Positions 46,927 through 64,000 are shown, numbered from the stretch's first letter. The stretch is 64,000 bases of DNA from Alphaproteobacteria bacterium (GCA_017533325.1 JAFXIF010000044.1:4345-68344), one strand, 5' to 3'. The notes: generated by a model not told the origin, from the sequence alone. Made by a program: numbers and translations.

Positions 46927-47206
46927 TTGTTTTTCGTTTATATGGATTTCCATAACTAAGACCAACAGGCGCGTTTTCGCTAATCATACAGTCAAAAAGA
47001 AAATAAGGCTCTCCTTGACCTGAAAAAAGTTCATCAAGGTAATATTTTATTTCTTCTTCAACTGATTGTTCCAATTCCCTTGGGGGAATTTTGTGTAACG
47101 GACATCTAAAATCAATCATCAAATCATCTTGAATGCGTTGTAATTTTTTTTGAATGCCGCGTTCAATAATATCGTATCGTTGTGCTTTTTCTTCAAGTGT
47201 TAACAT
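46919..47206 (-). CDS. Hypothetical protein (95 aa)
   Basis: Intact ORF downstream of the T4SS operon terminator. No recognisable motif. Confidence 0.3.
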   Translation of the reverse strand: MLTLEEKAQRYDIIERGIQKKLQRIQDDLMIDFRCPLHKIPPRELEQSVEEEIKYYLDELFSGQGEPYFLFDCMISENAPVGLSYGNPYKRKTIN

Positions 47207-47290
47207 TTAGCCTCCTTAAAATGTTGATTGTTGTTATATATTATACATATAATACAATATTTACATAAGTCAAGAGAAAAATGTATAAAA

Positions 47291-47328
47291 AAAGAGATTT
47301 TATAAAAAATATAAAATCTCTTGGGAAA
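47291..47328 (-). terminator. Rho-independent terminator closing the T4SS operon
   Basis: AAGAGATTTTATA(ttttt)TATAAAATCTCTT followed by a T7 run on the minus strand, 30 nt after the virB11 stop. Confidence 0.6.
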
Positions 47329-47354
47329 ACAACAATACTGAATATAAAAAGAAG

Positions 47355-48344
47355 CTATGTGACTTCTGTCACCGCGCGGATATTTCCATCTCGGTTGATT
47401 TGAACGACTCTTAATTTTTCTTTCATTTCACGATAGGTTTTTTCTCTATCTGTTGTCGGATAAGAGTGTAAAATACGTCCGATAAAAGCTTTATAAGCCG
47501 CATCCGGGTTTTCGGCATGGATAGTGGCAAAACAGTTTTCATGACCTGAACCCATTAATTCCCATAATGCACCTGCGTTGGAAGTTGAAATTTCACCACC
47601 GATAATGGCATCAGGGGTAAAGCGAACGGCAAGGTCAATCACTTTTTTATAGTCAAAATTATTTGTAAGTTCCGTTCTTGGTAAGACAATATGAACTCGA
47701 TTTTTATGCGGCACAATAAGTTCGCGTGTATCTTCAATGGTTAAAATACGTTTATGTGGGTCCAAGACCTTAATTAAATTATTTAAAAAGGTTGTTTTAC
47801 CAGTTGCCGTTGCCCCGGAGATTAAAACATGGTCACCGCGTTTAATAGAAAGCATTAATCTTTCAAAAGGATCATCTGGGTCTTCAACTTGTTTTAATCT
47901 GTTCAGCGGACGTAATCTTTCGCCGACACTTAAACCAAAATCGCTCATTGAAATATTAACGTCTTCTTTATAAACACGAATCGCCATAGCGATACCGCCG
48001 GTTAAATCGTTGTTATCATACATAACGTTTCTGCCGGCAATTCCGGTAAAACGATGTCCGCCTGGGAGCGTTGCATAAACAGTTGGTGTCCCTTGTGTCG
48101 GGTCAAAAGCATAATCATAAGAATTGGCAATAATATACATGATATTATTTAAATATTCTCGTGTTAGTTTTGGATCTTCATAGTAGTGCCATGGATGTGC
48201 ATGACGCCCGCGTAAGCGTAACCAAATACCGCCGGGAGAATCAACCGCAACTTCCTCAACATTATCTTGATTATACCAATAGGAAAGTGGGCGTAGAGCC
48301 GATTCTAAAACCCTATAGGTATCTGCAATCGATAATTCTCCCAT
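47355..48344 (-). CDS. virB11: Type IV secretion ATPase VirB11
   Basis: 329 aa with Walker A ISGATATGKTT and VirB11/TrbB-like length. Last gene of the operon. Confidence 0.85.
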   Translation of the reverse strand: MGELSIADTYRVLESALRPLSYWYNQDNVEEVAVDSPGGIWLRLRGRHAHPWHYYEDPKLTREYLNNIMYIIANSYDYAFDPTQGTPTVYATLPGGHRFTGIAGRNVMYDNNDLTGGIAMAIRVYKEDVNISMSDFGLSVGERLRPLNRLKQVEDPDDPFERLMLSIKRGDHVLISGATATGKTTFLNNLIKVLDPHKRILTIEDTRELIVPHKNRVHIVLPRTELTNNFDYKKVIDLAVRFTPDAIIGGEISTSNAGALWELMGSGHENCFATIHAENPDAAYKAFIGRILHSYPTTDREKTYREMKEKLRVVQINRDGNIRAVTEVT

Positions 48345-48360
48345 TCTTTATCATCCTTTT

Positions 48361-51300
48361 TTAAAACAATCTGTCAGAGGAGCCTGTTTTTGGTAGAACA
48401 GGTGTTACTTTTCTTTCCTCTACAGGTTGTTTTTCAACGCTGTCCCCAGTATAAATCGGTTCATTTGAATCTTCGTCAGAAGAGCCATCTTCATTATTAT
48501 ATTTGTCAGATGGTTTATAGTATTTACTATCATCAACTTCAGAGTTTTCGTCCTCATTAGTTTCTTCGTCTGATTCTTCCTCTTCTTCTTCGGATTTTTC
48601 TTCTTTAGATTCCTTTCGCGTGTCAACCCAAGAAGACGTATCCGGTGTTTGTGCTTCAGTTGAAACTTCTTCAGCTTCTTGGATGTCATCTTCTTCAGAT
48701 CTTAACCATAAATCTTCATTCGGGAAGACGGTTAAGCGCGTGCCTGACGGAACATAAATAACAACAGGAATATTTGCGGAATCTTCGATAAGTTGATCAA
48801 AGATTGTTTGCATAGATTCAATGAAGTTTTCTCTGGCATCATTTGCAGCTTCAGTTTTAGATGAAGTAATCGTGTTGCCATACATATCTTGATACATATC
48901 ATCATTTGTTGCCATCATGTAGGAAATAGCTGATGTAACAACGCTGGTCATAATCGGTTTACCGAATTTTTTAACCAATTCATCATCAAGATAAGCTGCA
49001 ACACCACCACGTCCTTGAGCATCACCTGATGTCCCTTCAAAGGAGAAAGCTCCTCCATCAGGACGGATAAGTCTTTGCCATGTGATTTCAAGTTTTGCCG
49101 CGCGTTTATCATTGCCTTGTTCACCGGCAAATGTTCCAATCAATCTGGAACCGGCCGGAATGATGATATTTCTTCCTTTTTCAGAATAAATATGTCTTTC
49201 AACAATGGCTGTAACAGGCATATCGGCATATCTGGAATCGATAGATCTTGTTAAGACTGCCGGAATTGCTTTGTCTTTCAAAATCATACGAGACATATCA
49301 ACAGGATAAGAAGATACAATTTTATTTACACCGATTGATTTCCAGTCCGCATCAGCTTTTTTACGAGCCATTGCTTTAATTTTTGAATTTGGTGTAATCA
49401 ATCCTCTTGATGCCATGCCGGCTTTCATTCCTTCTCGTTTTTGAGAAAGAATTTCTTGCATTTGTTGAATTTGTTCCGGTGTCGGTTTCAATTTTTTATC
49501 TGCAAAATTCGGACGAATACGACCTTGATCGTCACCTTGAGTGCTTAAGGGGCGTCCATCTAAAGTCATTGGTCTGCCATCTTGCATAAAGCCGACAATT
49601 TCATTTTGGTCATCTAAAATAGAACCATCCGGTGTAACTTGATATAATTTATTTCCGAATGAAATACGGCGTGTTCCGGCTTGTCCGGCTCCTCCTTGTG
49701 CATTTCTTAATGCTTCTAATTCTTCTTCAGAAAGTCCTTTAATACCACATTTATCCAAGCGAAGATCAAGGCCTTTAATTTTACCCATATCATTACCATC
49801 TTTATCTTTCAATAATCCGTTTTCATGAATGGTTGCATAGATTTCGCCATTCAACCCGATAATGGAGCCGTTTGGCATAATAGAAGCAATTTTTTCATTT
49901 TGAAGATTTAAAACATCACAACCTGAAATTTTTCCGAATGTATTTCCGTTGGCATCTACAAGTAGTCCGCTTTCAATATCACTTGGTAATTCGCCGTTTT
50001 CGCCGAGTTGTCCGATAACATTGCCATTTTCATCAACAATGTCTCCGTTTGGTAAAACCTGAGCAATAAATTTTCCTTCTGCATCTTTGATAACACCCTC
50101 AGAAGATAATGTCCCTTTAATATTACCTTTTTCGTCAAACAATAACTCTTCGTCACGGGAAACATTACGACCGATGATTTCACCTTTTTCGTTAACAACG
50201 TTGCCATCTGCGCGTAATACACCGATTTTTTCTCCGTTTTTGTTTACAACGTCCCCATTTAATTTAATTCGGCCGATTGGTTTTCCGTCTTTACCTAAAA
50301 CAAGCCCGCGTTCATGTGTTGCACCGATAACTTCGCCGGTTTTATGATCAACAACAGAACCGTCATTTCGGCTACATCCGATATTGATTCCGTTAACATC
50401 AACCACAGTTGAGTCCGGCATTGTGCGTCCGATATATTTTCCTTCAGGCGACATAACGATACCATTTCTTGTTACGCGACCGATTTTTTCACCTGAAGCA
50501 TTAACCGCCCATTTATCCGGTAAAATACGGCCAACAACCGTTCCTTTTGCATCAATAACTTGACCATTAAAAGCAGCTTGACCGACAACTTTACAATCAT
50601 TTGTAATTAATGCAGAAGGGATTAAGGCCCCTGTAATTTTATAAGTTCCTTCTTTAACCGTTCCATTAACGGCAATTTTCCCTTTTAATCCTCCGTTTGG
50701 AGAAACAATTTGCCCATTATGAATCAATGTCCCCATGAAAGAACCATCTTGTGAAATGGCAGTATAGAACGGCAAAACTGCACCGGCTAACGGTTCATCT
50801 TTGCCTAAAATAGTTCCGTCATCCAAAATGCGTAATGTTTTGCTGTCTGTTGCATCCAAAATATCACCGGAAAGAGTTGTTCGACCCAAAACATCCCCGC
50901 GATATCCAAACGGTAATCCTTGTTGGACAAGGCCACCTTTTTGAGGCATTGTGTTATATAAAGAACGATCTTGGATATCCGCAACAGAACCATCACTAAG
51001 CGCTCTTCCCGTCATTTGATTTGCATTGCCGATAACAGCGCCATCTGCAGCAACAGTTCCAAGAATTTTTGCATCATCATCAACAGCTACACCAAATGGA
51101 GCTTTTCCACCAGCCCAAAGATTATCGGAGGTGAGTGCAAAACCAAGAGGTGTTTGAACGGCAATGTTTCTTTCATCTTGATTAAAGATGGTTGCAGCAG
51201 TTTGTGTTTGACCGATTAAAAGGCCTGATTTCCCGACAAAAGCAGAAACAGGTAACGTCATACCACGAATATTGCCTTTTTCATTATAAAGGGCTCTGAT

Positions 51301-54300
51301 ACCTGAAGTGGAAGATTCTTTTTTACCTCTTAAGAAAATTGTTCCACTTAAGCTTTCGCGACCAACCGTGTTTAATGCATTTGATACAGCCGGTCCTGAG
51401 TAAACAACATTTCCTTGGATTTGTTTAATTAAGTTTGTTGCAAATCCGTTTGTCATTACCGAACCGAGAGGTTTTGAATTTCCGATGGATAAAATACTTC
51501 CGTTTGTTGAAATGATTCCCATTGTTTTGGCCGTGCTGTTTTCCGCAACAAATAAATCTTTGTCAGCCAATCTGGCAATAAAGTTCCCATCTTTTGCAAC
51601 AGTTTGCGGTGCAATGACTAAACCTTTTACTTGTCCTTTCCCATCAATAGCTTCACCGTATTCATTGATGAGATAAGAAAATTGATTATTGTCACCATAT
51701 CCGACTGAATTTAATGGGATAAATGTGCCTGTTATATCTCCCTTTGCATTTGCAATTCGGTTGTCAGATAATACATGGCCTAATTGTGATTTTGAAAGTC
51801 CGATGCGTCCGTCAGATTGAAGCAGTCCGGCAAACTTTCCGTTATTATCCACAGCAATCCCTTGTGGCAAAACTCTTCCGATTACTTCATCCATGTTATT
51901 GTAAATATAGTCTGAAGCATAAAGATAACCGGTATCTTTTTCAGCTGTAATGGTGTTATTAATTGACATGTAGCCGAGTAATTTTCCATTTGGTTTAACT
52001 GCAATACCAGTTTTTACAAGATAACCGATTTGATTCCCGGCTTTATCCAGACCAATTCCATTTGACATTAATCTTCCGATAGATCTTGAATTTTTGCCGT
52101 ATAAATCTGCATCAAAACTTGTCCATCCAATTAATTCATTCTTTGTATCAACATAAACGCCGAATGGAATCATTCTTCCGATAACGCCTTCAGAATTGAT
52201 AACCAATCCAAATGGGGTTGCTTGTCCGGCAATATTCCCATTTTTATCCATTATAGCCCCTGTTACACTTGGATAACCGATTAATTCTTCCGGAGAAAAA
52301 GCAAGGCTTAAGCGTTTAAAAACACCCCCGATAATTTTTTCATCAGATGAAATGGCAATCCCGTTTGCAAGAATTTTGCCGATAACTGTTTTCTTTGGTG
52401 AAATCACTTCGCCTTTAGGTGTAACCGAGCCGATTTCTTTACCTAAAACAGATAAAACTTTTCCATGAGGCATTTCAAAACCGATTACTTTTCCGTCCTT
52501 ATCCGTAACGGTTTTATTTGCTCTGATTGCCCCGATAATATCTCCGTCAGCATTCTTTAATGTGCCATCAACACCCATAGTGCCAAGATAATTATTATCT
52601 AAATCAAGAAAGGCTGTTTTATCAGGAATGAGAGTTCCGATAATTTTTTGAGTTTCACCGCTTATAGCAGTTAAATTTGGTAAAACACGGGCAAATCTTT
52701 CTCCTTCTTGATTCAATGCAAATCCGATTTTTGAATTGTAACGACCAAGAATCATACCATCTTGAGAAACGATAACTCCATCAGGTGGGATAACACCTAA
52801 AAATTTTCCGTTTGATGCAGAAACAATACCATCTTGGTCAACAGTGCCGATTTCATTTCCGTGGGCGTCATAAACTTTATCACCCATAACGGTCCAACCG
52901 GTCGGATTTCCGTTATCATCTAAAACAACTCCGTTAGGTGTATTTTGATTTCCGGATCCGACAACAGTTCCCAAAATTTCTTTACCATTTAAAGAAATAA
53001 CAGATCCATCTTCTTGAAGACATCCGATAATCTTTCCTTTTAAATCCATAACTTTACCATCAAGGCGCACACGACCGATAACAACACCTTCATTGTTTTT
53101 GACAACACCTTTGATAGCTAAAGCACCGATAATTTTTCCATTGTTATCAACAACAGTTTTATCCGGTGTTATACAACCAAACGGTTCATTATTCGCATCT
53201 GTTAAATCACCACCAATTGTGACAAGCCCTAATAAACGACATCCGTCAGCAATGGCAGAGGCTCTTGGAACAACAACACCGATAATGCGGTTTTGATCAT
53301 TTCGAACATAACTGTCCGTCATCACTTTGCCAACTTGTTCAAGTGAATCGTTAATGGCAATCCCGTTTGGGAAAACAGACCCGACTTGTTGACACCCAAA
53401 TCCGATGACGCGACCTTTTGGTAAAACAGAACCCACAGTCTTTTTACCAGCTGTTACAGATCCGTCCGGATTGACACAACCGATAACTGCTCCTTGGGGA
53501 CCAACGGCTTTACCTTCTGAATTTATAAATCCGATTGGATTGCCTTTTTCATTAATAACAAGCCCTAATTGAATAGCGCCGCCAATGTCCGTGCCGTCAT
53601 TGTTAATAACGCTTCCGTCAATTAATGTTTTTCCGACAGTTTGATTATATGAATCACGAACTTCACCATTTTGCATGATTTTGCCGGTTAATTGACATCC
53701 CGGAGCAACGGCAACCCCTTGAGGAATAGTTCCGCCAATAAGATCATTTGTGCTATTCACAACTAATCCGTTTGGTTTAACCATACCGATAACATTATTT
53801 GCTGCATCCATAACTGAACCGTCCGGAACAATTCCACCGATAACGTTACCTGTTAAATCGGCAACCAAACCCCATGGTCTTAAAACCCCTACTACACGGT
53901 TATTCAAATTGGCAACGGCACCGTTTGAAAGCGGTTTACCGATAACGGCACCTTTTTCATTTACAATTGTTCCGTCTTTTAATAATTTTCCGATTACATT
54001 TCCTGTCATATCCATAACCGAAACAATTGGGATGGCAGCCCCTAAAACATTTAATTCGGTATCAACAATGGTGTCATCTCCTAACAACCGACCGAGTTTG
54101 TCCCCATTTTCGTTAATTACATCACCATTTGGAGCAATTTTTCCCATGACCTCATTTTTTAAGTTAAGAGGTAATTTTTCGGGAACGGCAATAGCAACGA
54201 TTTTACCGTCTTTGTTGATATATAATCCGTTTTCAGTTGGTTTTATGACTTCACCGTCAATAACAATGGAGCCGTCTTCACCAACCGGATGCAATTTTCC

Positions 54301-54984
54301 ATCTAATCCCATTGCATATTTTTGTTCTTTTTCAGCATCATCCTTTGAAACTGATTCGCAAATAACACAATCTTTTGAATCGGTTGATTGAGCTTTTACT
54401 TGAACGGTTGTTTTCTTTTCTCTGTCAGAAAAACCGGCGGCAGTTGCAGAATCTTCTTCCCATTGAATAGTCAAAACATTTTGGATTTGTCTTAAAGAAA
54501 CAGGATTCCATAAAACTTTAATCAAGCATTCTTGCCCACTTGCCAAAGATTCATTTTCTTTACAAGTTGTTTCCATTGAAAATCCGTCTTGTTGATTTTC
54601 AAGAAATGTTGCCCCCTTGTAAAGAACAGCTCCGTTTTCGGCAGTTAATTTAATCAGCGCTTCGACTTGTGAACCGATAACAACATTATTCATATCAATT
54701 TGTTCAGGGACAACTTTTAAAGTAACATCCCCTCTGGCAAATCCTTGAAATTGACCGCCTTGTTCGTCTTTTTGGGTTTGGTATTCATCACCCCAGTCAA
54801 TATTTGTTGTTGTGTCTTGAACGGGCGCTTTTTCAGAGATAAAGGAAAGCGCTACAAAAAATACAATAAGAAGAAACAAACCGCCGAATAAAAGTTTCCT
54901 GTTGCTTTTTTTTACATATTGCTCACTAGAGCTTAATCCTCTGTTTTCTTTCATTGCTAACCCATTTCTTTTCTGTCGGAACAA
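48361..54984 (-). CDS. virB10: Giant VirB10-family protein (CagY-like) with a ~1700-aa degenerate repeat region
   Basis: 2207 aa. N-terminal cytoplasmic segment and single TM, then >100 degenerate ~12-13-aa repeats (xDGxVxDxxGxxIGxV), a C-terminal VirB10/TrbI domain (IPAGSRLIGTFAGEQ…VVIYVPSGTRLTVF), and an acidic Ser/Glu/Asp tail. Confidence 0.7.
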   Translation of the reverse strand: MFRQKRNGLAMKENRGLSSSEQYVKKSNRKLLFGGLFLLIVFFVALSFISEKAPVQDTTTNIDWGDEYQTQKDEQGGQFQGFARGDVTLKVVPEQIDMNNVVIGSQVEALIKLTAENGAVLYKGATFLENQQDGFSMETTCKENESLASGQECLIKVLWNPVSLRQIQNVLTIQWEEDSATAAGFSDREKKTTVQVKAQSTDSKDCVICESVSKDDAEKEQKYAMGLDGKLHPVGEDGSIVIDGEVIKPTENGLYINKDGKIVAIAVPEKLPLNLKNEVMGKIAPNGDVINENGDKLGRLLGDDTIVDTELNVLGAAIPIVSVMDMTGNVIGKLLKDGTIVNEKGAVIGKPLSNGAVANLNNRVVGVLRPWGLVADLTGNVIGGIVPDGSVMDAANNVIGMVKPNGLVVNSTNDLIGGTIPQGVAVAPGCQLTGKIMQNGEVRDSYNQTVGKTLIDGSVINNDGTDIGGAIQLGLVINEKGNPIGFINSEGKAVGPQGAVIGCVNPDGSVTAGKKTVGSVLPKGRVIGFGCQQVGSVFPNGIAINDSLEQVGKVMTDSYVRNDQNRIIGVVVPRASAIADGCRLLGLVTIGGDLTDANNEPFGCITPDKTVVDNNGKIIGALAIKGVVKNNEGVVIGRVRLDGKVMDLKGKIIGCLQEDGSVISLNGKEILGTVVGSGNQNTPNGVVLDDNGNPTGWTVMGDKVYDAHGNEIGTVDQDGIVSASNGKFLGVIPPDGVIVSQDGMILGRYNSKIGFALNQEGERFARVLPNLTAISGETQKIIGTLIPDKTAFLDLDNNYLGTMGVDGTLKNADGDIIGAIRANKTVTDKDGKVIGFEMPHGKVLSVLGKEIGSVTPKGEVISPKKTVIGKILANGIAISSDEKIIGGVFKRLSLAFSPEELIGYPSVTGAIMDKNGNIAGQATPFGLVINSEGVIGRMIPFGVYVDTKNELIGWTSFDADLYGKNSRSIGRLMSNGIGLDKAGNQIGYLVKTGIAVKPNGKLLGYMSINNTITAEKDTGYLYASDYIYNNMDEVIGRVLPQGIAVDNNGKFAGLLQSDGRIGLSKSQLGHVLSDNRIANAKGDITGTFIPLNSVGYGDNNQFSYLINEYGEAIDGKGQVKGLVIAPQTVAKDGNFIARLADKDLFVAENSTAKTMGIISTNGSILSIGNSKPLGSVMTNGFATNLIKQIQGNVVYSGPAVSNALNTVGRESLSGTIFLRGKKESSTSGIRALYNEKGNIRGMTLPVSAFVGKSGLLIGQTQTAATIFNQDERNIAVQTPLGFALTSDNLWAGGKAPFGVAVDDDAKILGTVAADGAVIGNANQMTGRALSDGSVADIQDRSLYNTMPQKGGLVQQGLPFGYRGDVLGRTTLSGDILDATDSKTLRILDDGTILGKDEPLAGAVLPFYTAISQDGSFMGTLIHNGQIVSPNGGLKGKIAVNGTVKEGTYKITGALIPSALITNDCKVVGQAAFNGQVIDAKGTVVGRILPDKWAVNASGEKIGRVTRNGIVMSPEGKYIGRTMPDSTVVDVNGINIGCSRNDGSVVDHKTGEVIGATHERGLVLGKDGKPIGRIKLNGDVVNKNGEKIGVLRADGNVVNEKGEIIGRNVSRDEELLFDEKGNIKGTLSSEGVIKDAEGKFIAQVLPNGDIVDENGNVIGQLGENGELPSDIESGLLVDANGNTFGKISGCDVLNLQNEKIASIMPNGSIIGLNGEIYATIHENGLLKDKDGNDMGKIKGLDLRLDKCGIKGLSEEELEALRNAQGGAGQAGTRRISFGNKLYQVTPDGSILDDQNEIVGFMQDGRPMTLDGRPLSTQGDDQGRIRPNFADKKLKPTPEQIQQMQEILSQKREGMKAGMASRGLITPNSKIKAMARKKADADWKSIGVNKIVSSYPVDMSRMILKDKAIPAVLTRSIDSRYADMPVTAIVERHIYSEKGRNIIIPAGSRLIGTFAGEQGNDKRAAKLEITWQRLIRPDGGAFSFEGTSGDAQGRGGVAAYLDDELVKKFGKPIMTSVVTSAISYMMATNDDMYQDMYGNTITSSKTEAANDARENFIESMQTIFDQLIEDSANIPVVIYVPSGTRLTVFPNEDLWLRSEEDDIQEAEEVSTEAQTPDTSSWVDTRKESKEEKSEEEEEESDEETNEDENSEVDDSKYYKPSDKYNNEDGSSDEDSNEPIYTGDSVEKQPVEERKVTPVLPKTGSSDRLF

Positions 54985-55009: not shown

Positions 55010-56788
55010 TTATTGAACGCGAACAACTGAACATCCAAAGCCGCGACGGCCTAATCTTTTGCATAATTTGTCGGCCAAAGTGATATCCTTAATCGGACCG
55101 ACACGCAAACGGAATAATTCGCGCATATTACTGTCTGCTGTTGTATCAACAGAATAATATGGTTCATATCCTTTTAAAACATCAGAGTTCTTTTCAAGAA
55201 TTTTTTCCCAAATGCTTTCAAGTTCTGTAATGTCAGCGTGTGTGCCAAGTTCAATCGAAATGGTTTCGCTTGTTGCCAAACCGGAATTTCTTTGAGTTGA
55301 AATCGGCATTTGACTCATAACCCCAACAATACCTGCAGAGGCTTGAGGTGAATTCATAACATTTGCCGGAATAGATTGGATTGGAGCCATATCGCCAGAA
55401 TAAATTGATCCGCCTTGCGGTGCATATTGAGGAATATAGTTTCCTGCATAGGAATCATAAATCATTCCTTGAGGATACATATTGTTTGATTGTTGCGTAT
55501 ATGAATTTTGTTGATAAGAATTCATCATTTTTGGTGTTGGAGCTAACGGACTTCTTTCAACAATTTTTTCGCTTTCTGTTTCACTCATTGCAGTCGGATC
55601 ATAAGCCGGAGCATCTTGGCTCATAACACTCGGGCGACCTGTATAAGGTGAAACAGTCATATTTTCAGCACCACTGTAATCTGTATATTCAAGACCGGCG
55701 CTTGGATCTCTTCTGAGTTTTAAGCAAATAAGTTTTTTGCCGTTTCTTAAAACCAAATCACCAATAGCTTCAACAACAATTAAACGACTGTTTGGCCCGG
55801 TTGTTCTAAATCCGACCGGAACTTCCGTATCTTGAACCAAAAGGCTGACCACCGGACGTTGTGTCATCGTTAATGCTTTCGGGCCCAAGTCAATGTATGT
55901 GAAAATATTATCGCGCCATACATTATCCGGAGCAATATCAACATCAGATGGATTTGGAATATAAATATCTATGTCAAAACGAATGTTTTCAGGGTCAACC
56001 GGAATGCTTTGCAACCAGTTTTTAGGGCCGGTTGAAGCTGTATTAATGCCTAATTGCGGATTTTGTCCGCCACTTCTACCGATTGCCCAACCGGGAGCTT
56101 TGTTGGAATTTAAAAATCCGTTACCGACAGCTCTGTTTGTGGCGCCGTTCATTCCGCCTAAACGTCCACCATTTTCAACCGGTGTATATCTCGGGCCAAC
56201 TAACACGTCAACAACAGATTGTGAAATTTTTTCGGCATTGTAAGTTTCGCTTCTTAAATAGAAAACATATCGGTTGCCGGATCTACCAAAAATAATCATA
56301 TTACTGTCAACCCCGATATAAGAGGGATCAGCATATAAAAGAAGAGAGTTTGGTGCGGCAATTTCACCACCAAATGATTCCGGAGAACCGATATGAACTT
56401 TTTCAATTAATTCCCATGTCGGTAAGTTGATAAGTGTCATCATACCTTCTCTTAAACGAATGGGTAAAATCACATCAGGTGACCAAGCGTATTTTGAATA
56501 CCCCGGTTTTGATTGACCTTCACCTAAATGTGCCATCGGATCGTTCCATGCTTTTTGTTGCATGCCGAGTGAATGTAAGTAATTTGGGTTAACAGATTCA
56601 TAATCGCCGTTTGTTTGAGCGATAGCGTCGCTTAAACGTTCACTTTCAGCATCTGTAGGCAACCCCTCTGAATGTGCAACAACAGAAAATAAAACAAAAA
56701 TAGCAGCCGTTGACAGCCAACCTTGTCTGTGAAGTTTTTGTTTGAACATAGAATCTCTCCTCTTTATTTTTGTAATATATTTACACAA
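55010..56788 (-). CDS. virB9: VirB9-like (CagX-like) T4SS protein with a C-terminal SPOR-like peptidoglycan-binding domain
   Basis: 592 aa with a signal peptide. Sits between virB8 and virB10. The C-terminal 70 aa (FRLRVGPIKDITLADKLCKRLGRRGFGCSVVRV) resembles a SPOR domain, preceded by a Q/Y/P-rich linker. The VirB9 call rests mainly on position and size. Confidence 0.5.
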   Translation of the reverse strand: MCKYITKIKRRDSMFKQKLHRQGWLSTAAIFVLFSVVAHSEGLPTDAESERLSDAIAQTNGDYESVNPNYLHSLGMQQKAWNDPMAHLGEGQSKPGYSKYAWSPDVILPIRLREGMMTLINLPTWELIEKVHIGSPESFGGEIAAPNSLLLYADPSYIGVDSNMIIFGRSGNRYVFYLRSETYNAEKISQSVVDVLVGPRYTPVENGGRLGGMNGATNRAVGNGFLNSNKAPGWAIGRSGGQNPQLGINTASTGPKNWLQSIPVDPENIRFDIDIYIPNPSDVDIAPDNVWRDNIFTYIDLGPKALTMTQRPVVSLLVQDTEVPVGFRTTGPNSRLIVVEAIGDLVLRNGKKLICLKLRRDPSAGLEYTDYSGAENMTVSPYTGRPSVMSQDAPAYDPTAMSETESEKIVERSPLAPTPKMMNSYQQNSYTQQSNNMYPQGMIYDSYAGNYIPQYAPQGGSIYSGDMAPIQSIPANVMNSPQASAGIVGVMSQMPISTQRNSGLATSETISIELGTHADITELESIWEKILEKNSDVLKGYEPYYSVDTTADSNMRELFRLRVGPIKDITLADKLCKRLGRRGFGCSVVRVQ

Positions 56789-56905: not shown

Positions 56906-57604
56906 TTATGAATCAGCTTTTTTTATCACGAGCTGAATAACTGTAAATCCAAGTGGGTTTTTAAGTCTTTCTTCCCAAGTTAATCCTTCACGAACGGGTT
57001 TGAAAGCAACATTCATTGTGACAACCCATCTTGATTTTTTCGGTTCGCTGGATAAGTGTTTCATTTCCGTAAATTCAACTTCTGCACGCCAAATGTTTTC
57101 ATTCTTGTTGGTGCGATAAGGATTAACAACTAAAATTTTGACATTACGGGTTAATCCTTCTTCTTTTGCTTGTTGGATCCAATCTTCGGCATATTCAGTA
57201 AATTTTGTATAGACCGTAGGTTCGCTCATCCAGTTAATTTCCCCATCAATTCCGGTTCGTCTTTCTAATTCTTGAATGTTTGAACCGATATTAAAATAGG
57301 AGAGCAAATATTGTCTGATAAAGGACTCAGTCAATGTTTGCATATTCATTTGACTAAAATTAGGTCGAACAACATTAACAACTTGTTCGTTTTTATTAAG
57401 TGTTGTTAAAAAAAATGGTTGAACTCTGACAATAGGCATTAAAGATGTAAGAGCAGTGATAAGCATAATAGTTGTTAAAGTTGAAACAACTAAAACAAGC
57501 GCAAACGTTCGCGCCATCCAAAGATAACGTCTTTCTTTAACGGCTTCTTCTGATAAATCTTGTCCTTGTTTTTTTTGTTGGACTTTTTGATTGCTCATTG
57601 TCAT
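56906..57604 (-). CDS. virB8: VirB8 (paralogue a)
   Basis: 232 aa. Cytoplasmic N-terminus, single TM, periplasmic NTF2-like domain pattern (ERRYLWMARTFALVLVVSTL…). Confidence 0.65.
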   Translation of the reverse strand: MTMSNQKVQQKKQGQDLSEEAVKERRYLWMARTFALVLVVSTLTTIMLITALTSLMPIVRVQPFFLTTLNKNEQVVNVVRPNFSQMNMQTLTESFIRQYLLSYFNIGSNIQELERRTGIDGEINWMSEPTVYTKFTEYAEDWIQQAKEEGLTRNVKILVVNPYRTNKNENIWRAEVEFTEMKHLSSEPKKSRWVVTMNVAFKPVREGLTWEERLKNPLGFTVIQLVIKKADS

Positions 57605-57622: not shown

Positions 57623-57814
57623 TTAAGATAACCAATCCGGAAGAGCAGGGGCTTTTTCAAGTTCAAGGCATGCACAAGGTGATTTTTTTAATTCAGAATA
57701 ATCCGGACCGATTCCAACAGGTTCTTTTTCATAAACACTACCGCAAGCTGCAGCCAAAACGGTCAATCCTAAAACAAATAAAACAACAAAATATTTTTTC
57801 ATTTTTTTCCTCAT
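57623..57814 (-). CDS. VirB7-like small lipoprotein
   Basis: 63 aa with lipobox LAAACGS. Located between the two virB8 paralogues, as in rvh clusters. Confidence 0.45.
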   Translation of the reverse strand: MRKKMKKYFVVLFVLGLTVLAAACGSVYEKEPVGIGPDYSELKKSPCACLELEKAPALPDWLS

Positions 57815-57891: not shown

Positions 57892-58590
57892 TTATTTTTT
57901 GACAGCTTCATCATATTTTTGTATGTAAAAACCAAAAGGGTTGGCAAAGGTTCGTGAATAAATGTGTCTGTTTGGATAATGCCCGACGGTGATTGTTGCC
58001 ACCCGCTGTTGAACGCGCGGTTTAACAATCGGGTCATAAGGATTATAAATAAAAACATCAAATTCAATGGTATATGTATTACCAAGTTTTGAGATATTTG
58101 TGATTTCAACACTTTGGGTTTCTTTTGCCGTAGAAATTTGTTTAATCTTTTCTTGTATGTTTTTTGAAAATTTAGCATAAACAGCCGGGGAAGATAGCCG
58201 TCTGATTTCTCCGCGAGCTCCCCATCTGGATGTCATTTCATTTTTATCCGCAAAATAAGAAACTCTTCTGTCAATATAATATCTGATTAACATTTCATCT
58301 AACAATTCACGATTAGCCCGATTACTGTGAGATTTTGAATCCATTAATCTATTTGCCGGTAAAGTATCGATTTGGATGTGATCTAACGTATTCATGGGAG
58401 AGGGTAAAATTTGAGCAATCACTTTTAATTTTGGCGCCATTTGAACCAATGTTAAAACAATGAACAAGTTAATAGCAATGGAAATAGCCGTCAATGTCAT
58501 CCAAAATTTTGCCCAATAAAGTGCAAATTTTCCTCGAGTTTTTTGGTCCTTGATAAAATAAGAAAGCACTAAAGACCTCCTTCTAAACAT
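57892..58590 (-). CDS. VirB8 (paralogue b)
   Basis: 232 aa with the same topology as VirB8a (KFALYWAKFWMTLTAISIAINLFIVL…). Confidence 0.55.
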   Translation of the reverse strand: MFRRRSLVLSYFIKDQKTRGKFALYWAKFWMTLTAISIAINLFIVLTLVQMAPKLKVIAQILPSPMNTLDHIQIDTLPANRLMDSKSHSNRANRELLDEMLIRYYIDRRVSYFADKNEMTSRWGARGEIRRLSSPAVYAKFSKNIQEKIKQISTAKETQSVEITNISKLGNTYTIEFDVFIYNPYDPIVKPRVQQRVATITVGHYPNRHIYSRTFANPFGFYIQKYDEAVKK

Positions 58591-60122
58591 CTTTTGTTTA
58601 TTTTTGTGTTATATGCTTTTTTGATGTCTTCCTTGTTCTTTTTTTCAAGTTCTTCATAAAGGGCATTTTCTGCTTGTTTTTCTTTTAATAAATGGTCTAT
58701 TTCTTGAGCATTTATAACCGTAAAATTAACACTGCCGTTGATGTCTTTTTCAAGTGCATTAACATAATTAAAATCCTGATAGGCTTGAGAAAAATACATG
58801 ATATGTTTAAGCTGTCTGTATTCTTCAGAATCTTTTTCAAGCGAATCAAGAGCATTTAATTGCTCAATATAAGACATTTTTAAATAAGTTTTAAATGAGT
58901 CCGGCTTATTTTTTGTATCCCCAATATCGGAATGTTTTTTTGTTATTTTATCTCGAACAGTTTGAATGTTTTTGCTTTTAAGTTGTAATAATTCTTCTTC
59001 TAAACGACTAACAGATTCAATATTATCAGCTTCAATAGCTGTTTGAATGCCAAGATCTTTTAGTCTGCTGTTTAATTCGTTAACAGCGGAAGATTTAGCA
59101 TTACTTGTAACGTTTAATGTATTTTCTGCACTTGTTTTTTCTTTTTTTATTGCTTGATAAACATTTAATCTGTTGTTTTGTTGGCTGGCGTCCATATGTC
59201 TCATGTCTTCATTTAAGACCAAGCTTTTGGGCAAAAATGTTTTTGCCATTTCACCATTTTCATTATATGTGTTAAATCCGCTTTGAATAAATTTTTGCCA
59301 GGGTTGAGGCCATTGAGGAAAAACAGATTTTGATTTTGCAGGATCTTCAGTAAACCACATAATTTCATGAGCCGGCGGTAATGCTTTGGGTGGTTTGGGG
59401 AATGTTTTTTGTGTTTCTGATAATTTTTGAAGTTGATCCGGGGGCAATGATGATAAAAATGTTTTATAGGCCGATTCATTTTGTTCAAAATTATTTTCAG
59501 CAGTGATACCGTTTATTCGACCGGTTCTCCCTAAAATTTTATTTACATCTTGCAAAAAAGAGTTCACTTCGTCTGCATAGACATATTTTTGATCTTCCCA
59601 TAAATCAAAAGATTTCCCCTCTTTTAGTTTTCCATATTTCTCTGGATTTGCATAAACATCTGTTAAAACTTCTTTCCCTAAATACCAGTTGGCAAAAAGT
59701 TCTGTTTGTGCTTTTTTCCCTGTGTTTTTTTGTTGAGGCATACTGTTTAAAATATCAACTGTTAATTTGAGCTCTCTGTCATCATATTCTTGAGTGATAT
59801 TTTTCCAAGCCGTTTTGGGATCTTCATAGACATCGGAGAGCAAATTGATATTACATGCCTCCATTGAATTATATTTTTGATTTATTAAATCAACTTGAAG
59901 TTTTTCTTGCTCTTCTTCTTGGTATCGTTTTTTTAAATTTCTAACTTTAATTTGCATAGCATGCAGTTGTTCAAGATATATTATTTCTCTTGTATAATCA
60001 TCAGATTCAATGGCTTCTTCGGTTTCTTGAGAAGCAATTTCAATAGGAGCTGTTGCATGAGTAAAACTGATAAATGAAAAAAATGAAATACCTGATAATG
60101 CTAAAAATAAAAATGGTTTCAT
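58569..60122 (-). CDS. T4SS-associated secreted coiled-coil protein (517 aa from ATG 60122)
   Basis: Signal peptide MKPFLFLALSGISFFSFISFTHA. The start overlaps the upstream gene's stop in ATGA. The ORF track extends to 60161 with a TTG start. Confidence 0.45.
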   Translation of the reverse strand: MKPFLFLALSGISFFSFISFTHATAPIEIASQETEEAIESDDYTREIIYLEQLHAMQIKVRNLKKRYQEEEQEKLQVDLINQKYNSMEACNINLLSDVYEDPKTAWKNITQEYDDRELKLTVDILNSMPQQKNTGKKAQTELFANWYLGKEVLTDVYANPEKYGKLKEGKSFDLWEDQKYVYADEVNSFLQDVNKILGRTGRINGITAENNFEQNESAYKTFLSSLPPDQLQKLSETQKTFPKPPKALPPAHEIMWFTEDPAKSKSVFPQWPQPWQKFIQSGFNTYNENGEMAKTFLPKSLVLNEDMRHMDASQQNNRLNVYQAIKKEKTSAENTLNVTSNAKSSAVNELNSRLKDLGIQTAIEADNIESVSRLEEELLQLKSKNIQTVRDKITKKHSDIGDTKNKPDSFKTYLKMSYIEQLNALDSLEKDSEEYRQLKHIMYFSQAYQDFNYVNALEKDINGSVNFTVINAQEIDHLLKEKQAENALYEELEKKNKEDIKKAYNTKINKRCLEGGL

Positions 60123-60901
60123 TGTTGATTTTCCTCCGGCAACTCTTCTTTGGGGTTCCAATATGTTTTATGGCGTTTTGCAGTCGCAAGACCCAGAAGG
60201 GCATTGTATTGTAATTGTGCAGCTCTTAATTGTTTTTGAATCATGAGTAATTTTGCCCATGTAATTTTTGCAAAGGCAGTTGTCATTAAAAGTTTGGTTT
60301 TATTTTCATTGCTTTCCAATGCCCCTTGATTAGAAGCTTTTTTAGATGAATCATCAATTTTTGTTTCCATATCATCAATGATCTTAAATATTTCTTTTGT
60401 TTGGTGTTTTAATACCAATATTCTTGCTAATAACTGAAGATTGGCTTGTTGGCGTATATATTGTCTTTTTTTAACAAAATTATAATCCCCCTCATGATCG
60501 GCAAAAGGTTGATCCGCATAGACCTCCATATTGCTTTTCATAATATTTTTAATCGTTGATGTTGCAGGGTCAGCTCGTTTTACAACTATTTCTTTTGGGG
60601 GTGTTCCTTTGGGAACAAAATCGCCAGGGGAGGCGTTTAAAATATCTAAAATTGTTGTTGACCCGCCTTGAATTGTTGAAATCGTGTCATTTACAATGGC
60701 TGTTGCGCGTTCTGAATAATAATGGCCTTGTTTTAGTACTTCGGCTACTCCTCTTGAAGCAGTGTCAGTTACACTTCCGGGTTCCAAAATTGGCCCTCCG
60801 ACACCGGCAATCCAACAAGGGTCACACGGCAAACAAATAGAATAAGCCGATAAAGATGTTGAAAATGTTAATATAAAAAGAAGGGAAGAAATTATTTTCA
60901 T
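60119..60901 (-). CDS. T4SS-associated secreted protein (260 aa)
   Basis: Signal peptide, Cys-rich mature N-terminus (CLPCDPC). 4-nt overlaps on both sides. Confidence 0.4.
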   Translation of the reverse strand: MKIISSLLFILTFSTSLSAYSICLPCDPCWIAGVGGPILEPGSVTDTASRGVAEVLKQGHYYSERATAIVNDTISTIQGGSTTILDILNASPGDFVPKGTPPKEIVVKRADPATSTIKNIMKSNMEVYADQPFADHEGDYNFVKKRQYIRQQANLQLLARILVLKHQTKEIFKIIDDMETKIDDSSKKASNQGALESNENKTKLLMTTAFAKITWAKLLMIQKQLRAAQLQYNALLGLATAKRHKTYWNPKEELPEENQQ

Positions 60902-61614
60902 TTTTTATCTCCTTCAGTGTCTTCTGGCGCACCAATTTTTTTAAGTGTTAAAATAGTCGGTTGGTCTTTGATAAATTGTTGAACAACATCTACTTCCATT
61001 TGAACAATTTGCAAAATGATTTGCGAAGCAACCATTTTTATTTGAGCTTTAATATTTCGGTTGAGCATGGCATTGCTTTGTGTTTGATTACAACCTTTTC
61101 CGGAAGCAACTTGCATGGATTGCATGTCTTCAATAAAAAGAGGTCGAAGTTGCTGAGCAAGCGAGTAAGCTTCAGCTGCAACTTCTGAAGCAAAGTTAAC
61201 CCTATTTTGAAGTTTTGTTAGGGCAGATTCTTTATCCCCTTCTTGCAAAAAGAAGTTTTTTTTCAACATGTCCAAAGCTGTTTTATACTTTTCTTGTGGA
61301 GAAATATATGTTGATTCGAAAAGCTTCATAATATTTGCTTCTAAATAATCATAGGTCTTTGTTGTTATTTCTGTTTTTTTGTTTGAAGGTGCATTAGAGC
61401 AAGAGGCGTTTCCGGATCGAGTATTATTTGCGATCTCTTCTTGTGTAACAACTTCTGCGCCTAAACTTGTAGTCAGTTGTGTTGCAATATTACTGCCTGC
61501 AAGTAGAGGAATATTTTTTATATCAGTAACGAGGCATTGACTAAAGGCTGTATGACATAATAATCCAGCGGCTAAAAAAGAAGAAAACAGATGTATTTTA
61601 AAGTTTTTTTTCAT
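60898..61614 (-). CDS. Secreted alpha-helical protein, possible VirB5/TrbJ-like minor pilin paralogue (238 aa)
   Basis: Signal peptide, with size and helical/Q-rich character similar to VirB5. The assignment is an inference. Confidence 0.35.
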   Translation of the reverse strand: MKKNFKIHLFSSFLAAGLLCHTAFSQCLVTDIKNIPLLAGSNIATQLTTSLGAEVVTQEEIANNTRSGNASCSNAPSNKKTEITTKTYDYLEANIMKLFESTYISPQEKYKTALDMLKKNFFLQEGDKESALTKLQNRVNFASEVAAEAYSLAQQLRPLFIEDMQSMQVASGKGCNQTQSNAMLNRNIKAQIKMVASQIILQIVQMEVDVVQQFIKDQPTILTLKKIGAPEDTEGDKK

Positions 61615-61625
61615 TTTTTTCTCCT

Positions 61626-62384
61626 TTAATCTTCTTCAACGATTTTTCGTTGTTTATCTTGCATTAGTAATGTGCTGTTGATTTCTAAAATTGAGGATTC
61701 AATAACTAACAATTCATTAAGAAGAACAGCTATTTTTTTATCTAAAACCGATAATCCGTTTTCAAGGCTTTTGACATCTGTTCGGGCTTTTATATTGGAA
61801 GACATACTTTCTAATTCTTCTTTTTGTTTATCCATAAGAGCTAACACTTTATCAGCAATAGCTAATCCATGATGCAAAGAAACATATCGTTTATGCTGAA
61901 TAAATTCTTGGGTGTTAACATATTTTGCATCTTCAAATGGGTCAATTTTAACGATTGCATCACTTTCAAGGTCTATTTTATCTTTTTCATTTAGAGAATT
62001 TTGTGCTTGATAATCTACCAAATAAGTGCTTTTAACAATTTGATGGAGTTTAGAAAGATTGGGTTCCTCTTTTGTTGATTCTTGTAGAAACATTTGTGTA
62101 AAAGTTTCATCTGTATAAAAAGCAACATCATCGCCCGTTAAGAGCGGAGAGTTATCCGAAGTTATTATTTCATGTCTGATAACGCCGGGTTGACCATAAT
62201 TTTTGTTTGCAGCTTTTTGATACATGGCAATAAATTTTGCAATTGTTGCAGATAATCTTTGATACCCTGCTTGAACAGGTGCCAATGGAGCCATTAATAT
62301 GCTGGTTGTTACACCGGCTTGAACTGGTGTATTTAAACAGGAGAGAACGATAACTGTTAATAAGAATGATTTAAATTTCAACAT
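61626..62384 (-). CDS. Secreted alpha-helical protein, possible VirB5-like paralogue (252 aa)
   Basis: Signal peptide and predicted coiled-coil C-terminal half. Confidence 0.35.
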   Translation of the reverse strand: MLKFKSFLLTVIVLSCLNTPVQAGVTTSILMAPLAPVQAGYQRLSATIAKFIAMYQKAANKNYGQPGVIRHEIITSDNSPLLTGDDVAFYTDETFTQMFLQESTKEEPNLSKLHQIVKSTYLVDYQAQNSLNEKDKIDLESDAIVKIDPFEDAKYVNTQEFIQHKRYVSLHHGLAIADKVLALMDKQKEELESMSSNIKARTDVKSLENGLSVLDKKIAVLLNELLVIESSILEINSTLLMQDKQRKIVEED

Positions 62385-62393
62385 GTTATCCTC

Positions 62394-63158
62394 CTAATCA
62401 AAAAATGAACCAACAATTCCGCCGACAGCCTGTATGGCCATCCCACCAACCACGTCTTTAAAAGAGTTGTTAGTATCTGTAACGTAATCTGCAGAACTGA
62501 TGGCTGTCAGCATATTATTAGTGGCTGCTGTTAAAACAATTGCATTATAAATTTGAGCGGTACTCATTTTAACGCTGGTATTATTTGAAACAGTAGAAGA
62601 GTAATTTGTTGTTTTGTTTGTGGTATCAGACACTTGGTTATCAATATTTTTTTTGCCGCTTAAATTTCTAGAGGCCGCATTTTTATGAATGGCTGCTAAG
62701 GCGTATCCAAATGTTGCAACTTCAACCAAAGCTCTTTCTCTTTTATTTTGTGTTTCAGCACTGTTAATAATACCAGCTTCTTCGGCTCTGCTTTTCCCGT
62801 CTTCTGTTTGAGCCGGTAATAAGGTATTCTTGAAAAATTCACTTCCATTAATACCTTCAGGAATGGATTCAGTTGATTTTGCATCTTCAGAAGAAAGTGA
62901 TGCATTGACACCTTCGGAAGGTTTATTATTAGCTATAAATTCCAAAGAATCATTACTAAAATTGTTGCCAAGTTCTCTGTTTTTACTGGATGTTTCCAGT
63001 TGGGAATTATGTTTTTCATCCTCCGCATCTTTATCGGCATCTTTTTGAGCATTTTGACCACTCTTATATCCGCCACTGTCACTAATTGGAATGGCAAGGG
63101 CATTTTGAACGGCAAAAGAAAAGAAGACTAAAAGAAAAATAAAAACTAATTTTTTCAT
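62394..63158 (-). CDS. Secreted protein with C-terminal glycine-zipper segment (254 aa)
   Basis: Signal peptide, S/T/N-rich middle region, C-terminal VVGGMAIQAVGGIVGSFFD. Confidence 0.35.
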   Translation of the reverse strand: MKKLVFIFLLVFFSFAVQNALAIPISDSGGYKSGQNAQKDADKDAEDEKHNSQLETSSKNRELGNNFSNDSLEFIANNKPSEGVNASLSSEDAKSTESIPEGINGSEFFKNTLLPAQTEDGKSRAEEAGIINSAETQNKRERALVEVATFGYALAAIHKNAASRNLSGKKNIDNQVSDTTNKTTNYSSTVSNNTSVKMSTAQIYNAIVLTAATNNMLTAISSADYVTDTNNSFKDVVGGMAIQAVGGIVGSFFD

Positions 63159-63931
63159 TCAAGACCTCCATCTGCTTTAATCGCATTGATTGTTGAATAT
63201 ATGCTTAAGGAATTTAACTCAAGTGCTGATAAATCCAATGCAAAATAACTAGCCCCAATAACATTAAAAAGAATATCTGATTCAACTCGTTTTGTTAATG
63301 TTTCTGAAACTGTTTTCGGATCTTGATCATTTAAAGCGGATTCTGTAGCTTCAAAATTTGCGGTTGTATTAATAATCGCTGCTGCATCAGCATAGGAATT
63401 TGCGATACCTTCAAATTGAGCCTTGGTGACATGTTGATGAATGTCACCCACCTCCATGATGCCTGGTTTTTCGTCATTGTCAAGATAAAAACATTTTTTT
63501 ACACCATCCGGAGTTTTTAAATCATTGCATATTTTTTTATTTTCTTCTCTTTTTGTTAATCGATCGATCGGATTTAACTCATTAACCTTAGTCATAATGT
63601 CAGAAGTGCCCTTTTTGGGTTTAACAAAACCACTGCCTGCAACCTCTTCTTCATCAGATGAAAATAAATCACCAACATAGTCTGCTCCTTGTTCCGCCCA
63701 GCCTCCAACTGTATCCGTGGCACTTTCAATAGCGCCATCTAGAGTATTGGTGGCGGCTTGTGTGGCTGAACTGATAGCGGTTGTTGCAGTTCCAATAACG
63801 GTATCCACAGTTCCCACAACAGCATTTTCAACATTATCTATAGTTGTCATAGCTTTATTTGCAAATTGTCCTAAAGCCGATTGCTCAAAATAATTAGGCA
63901 ATCCATTTATCATATTCTGAGCTTGCATCAA
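63155..63931 (-). CDS. Hypothetical T4SS-operon protein (258 aa, Ala/Thr-rich N-terminus)
   Basis: Intact ORF with a 4-nt overlap with the downstream gene. No clear signal peptide. The operon may continue beyond the window edge. Confidence 0.35.
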   Translation of the reverse strand: MMQAQNMINGLPNYFEQSALGQFANKAMTTIDNVENAVVGTVDTVIGTATTAISSATQAATNTLDGAIESATDTVGGWAEQGADYVGDLFSSDEEEVAGSGFVKPKKGTSDIMTKVNELNPIDRLTKREENKKICNDLKTPDGVKKCFYLDNDEKPGIMEVGDIHQHVTKAQFEGIANSYADAAAIINTTANFEATESALNDQDPKTVSETLTKRVESDILFNVIGASYFALDLSALELNSLSIYSTINAIKADGGLE

Positions 63932-64000
63932 TCCCCTTAAATTTTCTTCCGTTGTGGCATGTTCAATGGTTGATTGCAGATTGGGTGTATAATTAAGATT

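Follow-up and report, generated by a model that had tools for sequence, protein, structure and literature searches.

Six unannotated protein families, five of them probably of the VirB5 superfamily, encoded with an expanded type IV secretion system of uncultured gut Alphaproteobacteria

Introduction

In this study, a 64,000-nucleotide stretch of DNA from an Alphaproteobacteria bacterium (GCA_017533325.1, JAFXIF010000044.1:4345-68344; hereafter the window) was analysed, with emphasis on six consecutive open reading frames (ORFs) that lie head to tail on its minus strand, from position 58569 to the window end, beside genes of a type IV secretion system (T4SS). These ORFs, named A to F in the direction of transcription, appear from sequence comparison to represent six unannotated T4SS-associated families, five of which probably belong to the VirB5 superfamily, in an undescribed and expanded T4SS. 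The explanation that we consider fairly probable on these comparisons is that A–E are very old paralogues in a VirB5-like superfamily and F is a new partner, the six serving as non-redundant components of a stalk, pilus base or tip.

VirB5 proteins nucleate and cap the pilus and are thought to contact target cells; several T4SS lineages, among them Rickettsiales rvh, Ptl and ComB, are described as lacking VirB5. Canonical VirB5 forms a pentamer on a VirB6 platform, nucleates the pilus and ends at the pilus tip (PMC12857230), and in its crystal structure TraC, a member of the same family, is a three-helix bundle with a small globular appendage (PMC2653234). The hallmarks of rvh systems are duplicated VirB8, VirB9 and VirB4, a multicopy VirB6 and the lack of a VirB5 analogue (PMC11077975; also PMC2653234).

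Organisation and export signals of the array

The first-pass annotation of the window had described an array of six translationally coupled genes, and the present analysis confirms six consecutive minus-strand ORFs with tight junctions at the coordinates given. Protein A (63155-64000; minus strand, as are all array and T4SS genes below) is represented by the C-terminal 281 codons of a gene that continues past the window end, and its orthologues have 315-317 amino acids (aa). Its G/T/S/V-rich low-complexity stretch precedes a helical region that is conserved at the C-terminus; two Cys are likewise conserved. Protein B (62394-63158; 254 aa, assigned from its ORF and signal peptide) starts with a signal peptide, after which the mature N-terminus IPISD resembles the motif 'GIPVxD' of VirB5 proteins; a polar central part, probably disordered, leads to the helix motif KRERALVEVATFGYALA, and the C-terminus is rich in Gly. 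A database look-up of the exact B sequence returned no record. Proteins C, D and E were assigned from their ORFs and alignments, and each begins with a signal peptide. In C (61626-62384; 252 aa), a variable middle precedes a conserved C-terminal helix pair (NTQEF...LNELLV..S..LEI). In D (60898-61614; 238 aa), the mature chain begins with C-L/P-V-T-D, C72 and C175 form a conserved Cys pair, and the long helices bear the motifs R..(Y/F)A.EVA and GCNQTQS..NRN. E (60119-60901; 260 aa) has a Cys-rich mature N-terminus (C.PC..CW..GGP) and the conserved helices KRRQYIRQQAN..ARILVLK and LL.IQKQ.EA..L.Y. F (58569-60122; 517 aa from the ATG at 60122) is all-helical after its signal peptide, with long helical hairpins, and is the best-conserved member of the array, retaining C90, C512 and a C-terminal CLxGGL.

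In profile searches, residues ~50-110 of A, which are G/T/S/V/A-rich (…VENAVVGTVDTVIGTATTAISSATQAATNTLDGAIESATDTVGG…), behaved in a near-palindromic manner: reversed A sequences scored E ~1e-50, the low-complexity part matching its own reverse. Longer D-like proteins, for instance P0038 and P0045, have comparable repeats at the N-terminus.

Hydrophobic N-terminal signal-peptide regions were found in B, C, D, E and F. The frame of A contains no stop from its listed start to base 64000, and the A orthologues begin with a typical signal peptide; thus, all six proteins are taken to be exported. The earlier count of five signal peptides therefore becomes six of six, the 258 aa given for A is an artefact of the window edge, and the size cluster of 238-260 aa holds four proteins and not five, A being longer. 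The reported absence of transmembrane helices was borne out for B–F, in which no transmembrane-like segment lies past residue 35 and the maximum Kyte-Doolittle 19-residue window is <=1.5.

Four-nucleotide ATGA overlaps were found at the A/B, D/E and E/F junctions, whereas B and C are separated by 9 nucleotides and C and D by 11, with a GGAG-type ribosome-binding site ahead in both cases. Promoter-like and terminator-like sites were no more frequent than in shuffled sequence, which fits one long operon. The array had been placed at the head of this operon; the start is not visible in the window, and in relatives the array comes directly after folD on the same strand, ~50-100 bp downstream.

Conservation of the array in relatives

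By homology searches and contig look-ups, a minimum of 12 further loci with this arrangement were identified, all of which belong to uncultured Alphaproteobacteria of gut or rumen-type metagenomes, including a metagenome-assembled genome (MAG) from yak rectum. The gene order is (xerD)-lptD-surA-folD, the array, virB8, a small lipoprotein gene and virB8, followed in most loci by virB9 and giant virB10. Loci L011 and L019 have other genes in the latter place: the array and virB8 (L011, 6254-12579) or the array and virB8-virB7-virB8 (L019, 7607-14791) are succeeded by unrelated genes. The array thus stays with virB8 even where the rest of the cluster is elsewhere.

When the proteins of the nine loci closest to the window were clustered by BLAST, six groups were obtained that correspond to the gene positions without any cross-links, and a single protein, L009_2 at position 2, was left outside its group. 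Family hidden Markov models (HMMs) were also applied to the three loci of six or seven genes that are most diverged, and there recovered the positional orthologues of D–F clearly and those of A–C only in part. A–C diverge fast (~14-30% identity between distant orthologues), and the F family comprises 19 clusters with identity down to 22%. The first-pass annotation had suggested looking for variation in copy number between strains; among relatives at 55-98% identity the gene number is a constant six, with five genes in L011 and seven in L018, which are very distant. Given these constant positional groups and the constant gene number, the array is, as judged by sequence, an old and fixed gene set and not a recent amplification.

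An exhaustive profile search with D yielded 64 representative relatives, and contigs were inspected for three of them, each of which occupies the D position in a syntenic array of this kind; the cluster names of the distant D relatives were all empty. One more locus was added by a metagenome scan, and two more proteins by a second D homology search. In the yak-rectum MAG (L005, 10741-11627), the E orthologue appears as two ORFs of 105 and 190 aa, which could reflect a frameshift, a pseudogene or an assembly error.

Remote links among the array proteins and to VirB5

All-against-all BLASTP of the six proteins, the comparison proposed at first pass, found no pair with E below 1, which speaks against six recent paralogues, and hhalign between shallow family profiles matched signal peptides only. 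A relationship among A–E emerges only with much deeper profiles. The description 'paralogous-looking' fails at the level of BLASTP or shallow profiles.

The link to VirB5 runs through plasmid-encoded proteins. The best plasmid match of the window VirB11 is on Microvirga pMVF16-3 (42% identity, all others ~28%). The conjugative T4SS of this plasmid includes a lipoprotein homologous to a 63-aa protein of the window (motif ...PIGIG...LKKSPCAC) and, right after VirB4, two exported helical proteins, Mv_273 and Mv_428, that are mutually related (hhalign 40%, E 3e-4). A single additional plasmid homologue of Mv_273 was identified, Ea_251 from Erythrobacter aureus (tblastn E 2e-7), and it too lies right after VirB4. 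Ea_251 passes the gathering score of the Pfam VirB5 family PF07996 (30.3 vs 24.7 bits, E 7e-7) over its full length.

The links were tested with signal peptides removed and with reversed and shuffled decoys added. The HMM of the D superfamily matched Mv_273 with E 7e-6 and Ea_251 with E 5e-5, and every decoy had an E value of at least 0.05. In BLASTP, Ea_251 matched the D orthologue L019_4 with E 5e-4 over 159 C-terminal residues, and a single-pass phmmer search from Ea_251 placed 11 real matches (Mv_273, D relatives, Mv_428 and Ea_453) ahead of the first decoy. A jackhmmer search seeded with Ea_251, for which 32 N-terminal residues were removed from every sequence, converged on a set that contained every D protein, each of the 12 A proteins, 10 proteins of position 5 and none of the 810 decoys; after convergence, the E member win_5 scored E 2e-18. 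Seeded with B, jackhmmer merged with the D superfamily, again with 0 decoys, the hinge being one helix motif shared by B (KRERALVEVATFGYALA) and D (KRKRYASEVASKGYALA).

Profile-profile comparison with hhalign gave probabilities of 70% for C and D (E 4e-5 over 124 columns), 56% for B and D (E 1e-4) and 30-51% for A and the D superfamily. The value for E and D was 2% only, and E joins the superfamily solely through the Ea_251-seeded search; the jackhmmer search seeded with C stayed inside family C. Taken together, deep decoy-controlled profiles appear to link A, B, D and E, and C less firmly. F is, on the same profile evidence, unrelated to the other five, with no profile link to A–E or VirB5.

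The mature N-termini were also compared. In twelve plasmid VirB5 proteins, the mature chain starts with G/Q-I-P-V-x-D right after the cleavage site and continues into a long helix. Mature starts of B orthologues include IPISD, GIPVSD, GIPITD, VPAMD and WPISD, those of D orthologues are CPVTD or FVVTD, and diverged C and E orthologues have V(T/I)ID and PVTD. A hydrophobic-P-(V/I)-x-D start is thus present in many B and D orthologues and in some C and E orthologues. The combination of a signal peptide with a VirB5-type mature N-terminus is supportive only, the motif being short.

In several T4SS of alphaproteobacterial plasmids, virB4 is followed by a pair of VirB5-like genes, the second of which is longer or more diverged and bears the annotation 'hypothetical'. 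Such pairs were found in Microvirga pMVF16-3 (L016, 12469-15336; 273 and 428 aa), Methylocystis pGW6_1 (L024, 2338-3735; 222 and 238 aa) and Erythrobacter (L033, 8923-11163; 251 and 453 aa). The adjacent genes in the Microvirga and Methylocystis plasmids offer a precedent for the array. A tblastn search with Agrobacterium VirB5 recovered close Rhizobiaceae relatives only and was of no use as a broad reference.

Family and structure searches

Scans of Pfam and NCBIfam with the six proteins, 29 orthologues and 65 members of the D superfamily gave nothing meaningful. The VirB5 models considered were Pfam PF07996 and the NCBIfam models TIGR02791 (VirB5) and TIGR02780 (TrbJ), and PF07996 was unmatched by this set even at E 5. 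The B orthologue L009_2 had weak NCBIfam matches, with four TrbJ/VirB5 models in the top five (E 1e-4 to 0.04), but these fall far short of the cut-offs. The scans revealed no enzymatic or toxin domain in the six proteins, nor did any of the six show a clear lipobox or the beta-rich prediction that is usual for accessory proteins of a core complex.

The AlphaFold model of D, built from 7 sequences, is all-helical and unreliable, with a mean predicted local distance difference test score (pLDDT) of 41; this low-confidence model has three helices of 36-40 residues, with two short ones between the first and the second. The model of F (20 sequences) reached a mean pLDDT of 82.3 and a predicted template-modelling score (pTM) of 0.72, and consists of long helices and hairpins. 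A Foldseek search of the F model against PDB gave no match below E 0.1 and returned coiled-coil noise only (best E 0.16). According to this confident model, F is a new all-helical fold without a PDB match. Two other identities were considered and dropped: the periplasmic Tra proteins of F-type systems (TraF, H, U, W, N; TrbC) because there was no Pfam match, and, for F, a diverged VirB9a because there was no CagX signal.

Genes downstream of the array

The first VirB8 paralogue (57892-58590; 232 aa; Pfam PF04335, E 6e-9) directly follows F, and the first 22 nucleotides of its gene, counted from the listed ATG, overlap the end of F. A VirB7-like lipoprotein (57623-57814; 63 aa; lipobox AAC, motif KKSPCAC) lies between it and the second VirB8 paralogue (56906-57604; 232 aa; PF04335, E 2e-14), and the two VirB8 proteins share 24% identity. 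The lipoprotein (…AACGS…PVGIGPDYSELKKSPCAC…) is a clear homologue of small lipoproteins of the Microvirga and Erythrobacter plasmid T4SS, whose genes are located just before virB8 (L016:15500-15676 and L033:11416-11622, respectively), and looks like a member of a recognisable VirB7-like family with a conserved PCAC motif.

VirB9 (55010-56788; 592 aa; Pfam CagX, E 3e-12) bears a C-terminal SPOR domain (E 1e-6), which is peptidoglycan-binding and preceded by a long Q/N/S/Y-rich linker; the SPOR match recurs in several relatives. The giant VirB10 (48361-54984; 2207 aa; Pfam PF21785, E 3e-63, and PF03743, E 5e-33) contains at least 10 beta-flower repeats (PF21785/PF21784), matches to DUF3659 and a C-terminal TrbI domain, and its size is kept in relatives (~2200-2540 aa). 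Literature searches found no account of a giant beta-flower VirB10 or of a T4SS in RF32-type gut Alphaproteobacteria. The cluster ends with the gene for the VirB11 ATPase (47355-48344; 329 aa; Pfam T2SSE). No virD4 follows it (window 46192-48344); the next gene, on the opposite strand, encodes a 1-Cys peroxiredoxin, and a coupling protein, should one exist, is encoded elsewhere. The array is located between folD and virB8, and virB4 and virB6 are absent from the window and from the flanks of the related loci; accordingly, the array genes do not occupy the canonical virB5 slot between virB4 and virB6.

Discussion

Our proposal is that the array would form the periplasmic and surface 'VirB5 module' of a chromosomal, split, rvh-like P-type T4SS. 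A–E would be five Sec-exported helical proteins of ~240-315 aa, ancient paralogues that, by analogy with known systems, probably form or decorate a stalk, pilus-base or tip structure, and F would be a lineage-specific exported helical partner. The machine itself would have an enlarged outer part, with the giant VirB10 and the SPOR-bearing VirB9. Because position and identity are retained for every one of the six over a deep clade, we infer that they are non-redundant, co-assembling subunits rather than interchangeable antigenic variants, with a VirB5 fold and a place in the machine presumed in the same way. A bolder version, which we regard as improbable, is that A–E make up one hetero-pentamer with one subunit each, replacing the VirB5 homo-pentamer on VirB6, with F in the role of adaptor or cap. 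A parallel would exist in the Rickettsiales rvh systems, which have four or five VirB6 paralogues. If the hetero-pentamer existed, the five-fold stalk and pilus tip would be built from five different gene products, and relatives of the rvh systems, which are described as lacking VirB5, would carry a VirB5 too diverged for standard tools.

Several results weigh against a VirB5 ancestry of A–E. No family reaches a curated threshold for VirB5, TrbJ or any other model in Pfam or NCBIfam, searches of PDB sequences with the six family profiles found nothing, and there is no confident structure for any of A–E. The top PDB match of the D superfamily, TrwJ (the VirB5 of R388), had E 0.016 and was mostly signal peptide; mature TrwJ scored 6.7 bits against the D-superfamily profile, which is the level of decoys. 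Likewise, an hhalign value of 87% between the D superfamily and the 12 canonical VirB5 proteins was rejected as driven by the signal peptide because the mature D profile gave 2.7%. Since the matches to TrwJ and to these 12 proteins are carried mainly by signal peptides, the VirB5 link, as traced by sequence, is transitive via Ea_251 and Mv_273 and not direct to the canonical family. The B–D link depends on one bridging match and a motif of ~20 residues, and C and E have one kind of support each. The iterative searches used a small custom database of helical, polar proteins of similar composition, in which profiles may drift. Finally, virB2, virB3, virB4, virB6 and virD4 are absent from the window. 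The first-pass suggestion of VirB5-like proteins thus survives in the form of remote, decoy-controlled links and not as membership of a curated family.

The likeness to the VirB5/TraC/TrwJ/TrbJ family includes a Sec signal peptide, a length of ~220-270 aa, an all-helical prediction, a hydrophobic-P-V-x-D mature start and a gene in a virB cluster, in addition to the remote links through Ea_251 and Mv_273. The differences are that no curated model is matched, that canonical TrwJ-type proteins are not significant once the signal peptide is removed, and that five distinct, anciently diverged members are found here instead of one, upstream of virB8 and not between virB4 and virB6. As in Rickettsiales rvh, the cluster is chromosomal, the virB8-virB11 block is apart from virB2, virB3, virB4 and virB6, and VirB8 is duplicated; in rvh the two virB8 copies flank a small VirB7 gene, and here they flank a small lipoprotein gene. 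Unlike rvh, which has none, this cluster has probable VirB5 analogues, perhaps five, together with a single, SPOR-bearing VirB9, a giant VirB10 and no virD4 after virB11, and its hosts are uncultured gut Alphaproteobacteria with genes for lipopolysaccharide transport, peptidoglycan amidase and alanine racemase.

In the Helicobacter Cag system, CagL, CagI and CagH are distinct pilus-associated proteins and CagY is a giant repeat-bearing VirB10 homologue. Several exported VirB5-like or pilus-associated proteins encoded together, a very large repeat-bearing VirB10 and an enlarged VirB9 would be common to both systems, whereas no sequence similarity to Cag proteins was detected in Pfam and PDB searches and the VirB10 repeats here are of the beta-flower type. 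The Bordetella ptx-ptl locus resembles the present one in having five or six genes for signal-peptide proteins at the head of a T4SS operon and no adjacent virD4; here, however, the proteins have no toxin or enzymatic domains and are helical and VirB5-like, not of the AB5 type. Bartonella Trw likewise carries several VirB5-type genes in one T4SS locus (PMC12857230), although the Trw copies are recent and recognisably similar tandem duplicates, whereas the array members have diverged past BLAST detection and are fixed by position.

Three rival explanations were weighed against the proposed module of structural VirB5-like subunits. In one, which we rate as rather unlikely, the six are unrelated to VirB5 and serve an expanded core complex of the outer membrane or periplasm as lineage-specific accessory subunits, like Helicobacter Cag3/CagM/CagT or Legionella DotC/DotD/DotK/Dis; the weak links would then be artefacts of a common helical and polar composition. 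This reading agrees with a machine that is clearly expanded (the 2207-aa beta-flower VirB10 and the SPOR VirB9), with the F fold, which is unmatched in PDB and without a VirB5 link, and with the failure of both curated VirB5 models and mature-sequence comparison with canonical VirB5. However, D, A and E are linked to a protein that passes PF07996 without any decoy false positive, the VirB5-type mature N-terminal motif is present, and the lack of a clear lipobox or beta-rich prediction in the six does not suit such subunits.

Pertussis toxin, with its five signal-peptide-bearing subunits, is encoded directly upstream of ptl, a T4SS without VirD4 and VirB5. The array proteins could in the same manner be Sec-exported cargo that is assembled in the periplasm and then pushed out by the T4SS, which we consider unlikely. 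The Sec signal peptides on all six, the position at the head of the T4SS cluster and the absence of virD4 after virB11 in the window are all compatible with it, as is the reviewed route by which the toxin subunits are exported by the general secretory pathway and proposed as a stand-in for VirB5 (PMC12857230). Nevertheless, no enzymatic or toxin domain was detected, and remote homology points to structural proteins of the VirB5 type. The set is also conserved with structural genes over deep divergence, A–C evolving fast as surface structures do, and in L011 it remains beside virB8 though the rest of the cluster is elsewhere. The 'effector set' mentioned at first pass is accordingly the less favoured alternative. 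The least likely rival, which we hold to be very improbable, regards the six as interchangeable, antigenically variable pilus-tip adhesins that arose by gene amplification, as has been proposed for trwJ/trwL of Bartonella Trw. Tandem VirB5-like genes, the fast divergence of A–C, the five to seven genes of the most diverged loci and the published precedent of multiple VirB5-type copies in one T4SS locus (PMC12857230) would be in keeping with it. By contrast, the paralogues have no detectable pairwise similarity, every position corresponds to its own conserved group of orthologues throughout the clade, and copy number does not change among the closer relatives; signs of recent duplication or of gene conversion were likewise absent. 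The parallel drawn at first pass with trwJ amplification does not fit these six old, position-fixed orthologue groups, of which F is unrelated to the rest.

The array ties six orphan protein families to an unstudied, enlarged, rvh-like T4SS of uncultured gut Alphaproteobacteria, and five of them are traceable, though remotely, to the VirB5 superfamily. Should the tracing be correct, VirB5 is able to diverge so far that standard annotation misses it, and systems regarded as 'VirB5-less' merit re-inspection. A fixed set of five distinct VirB5-like subunits also poses the question of a heteromeric five-fold stalk or tip. The analysis yields profiles for six new T4SS-associated families and one confidently modelled new helical fold, that of F.

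Other features of the window

A 1204-aa ORF on the plus strand (7808-11422) had no Pfam match at E 1e-5. The remaining window is ordinary alphaproteobacterial chromosome, with genes for MipZ, HtpG, RNase E, Rho, isoleucyl-tRNA synthetase (IleRS) and alanine racemase, among others.

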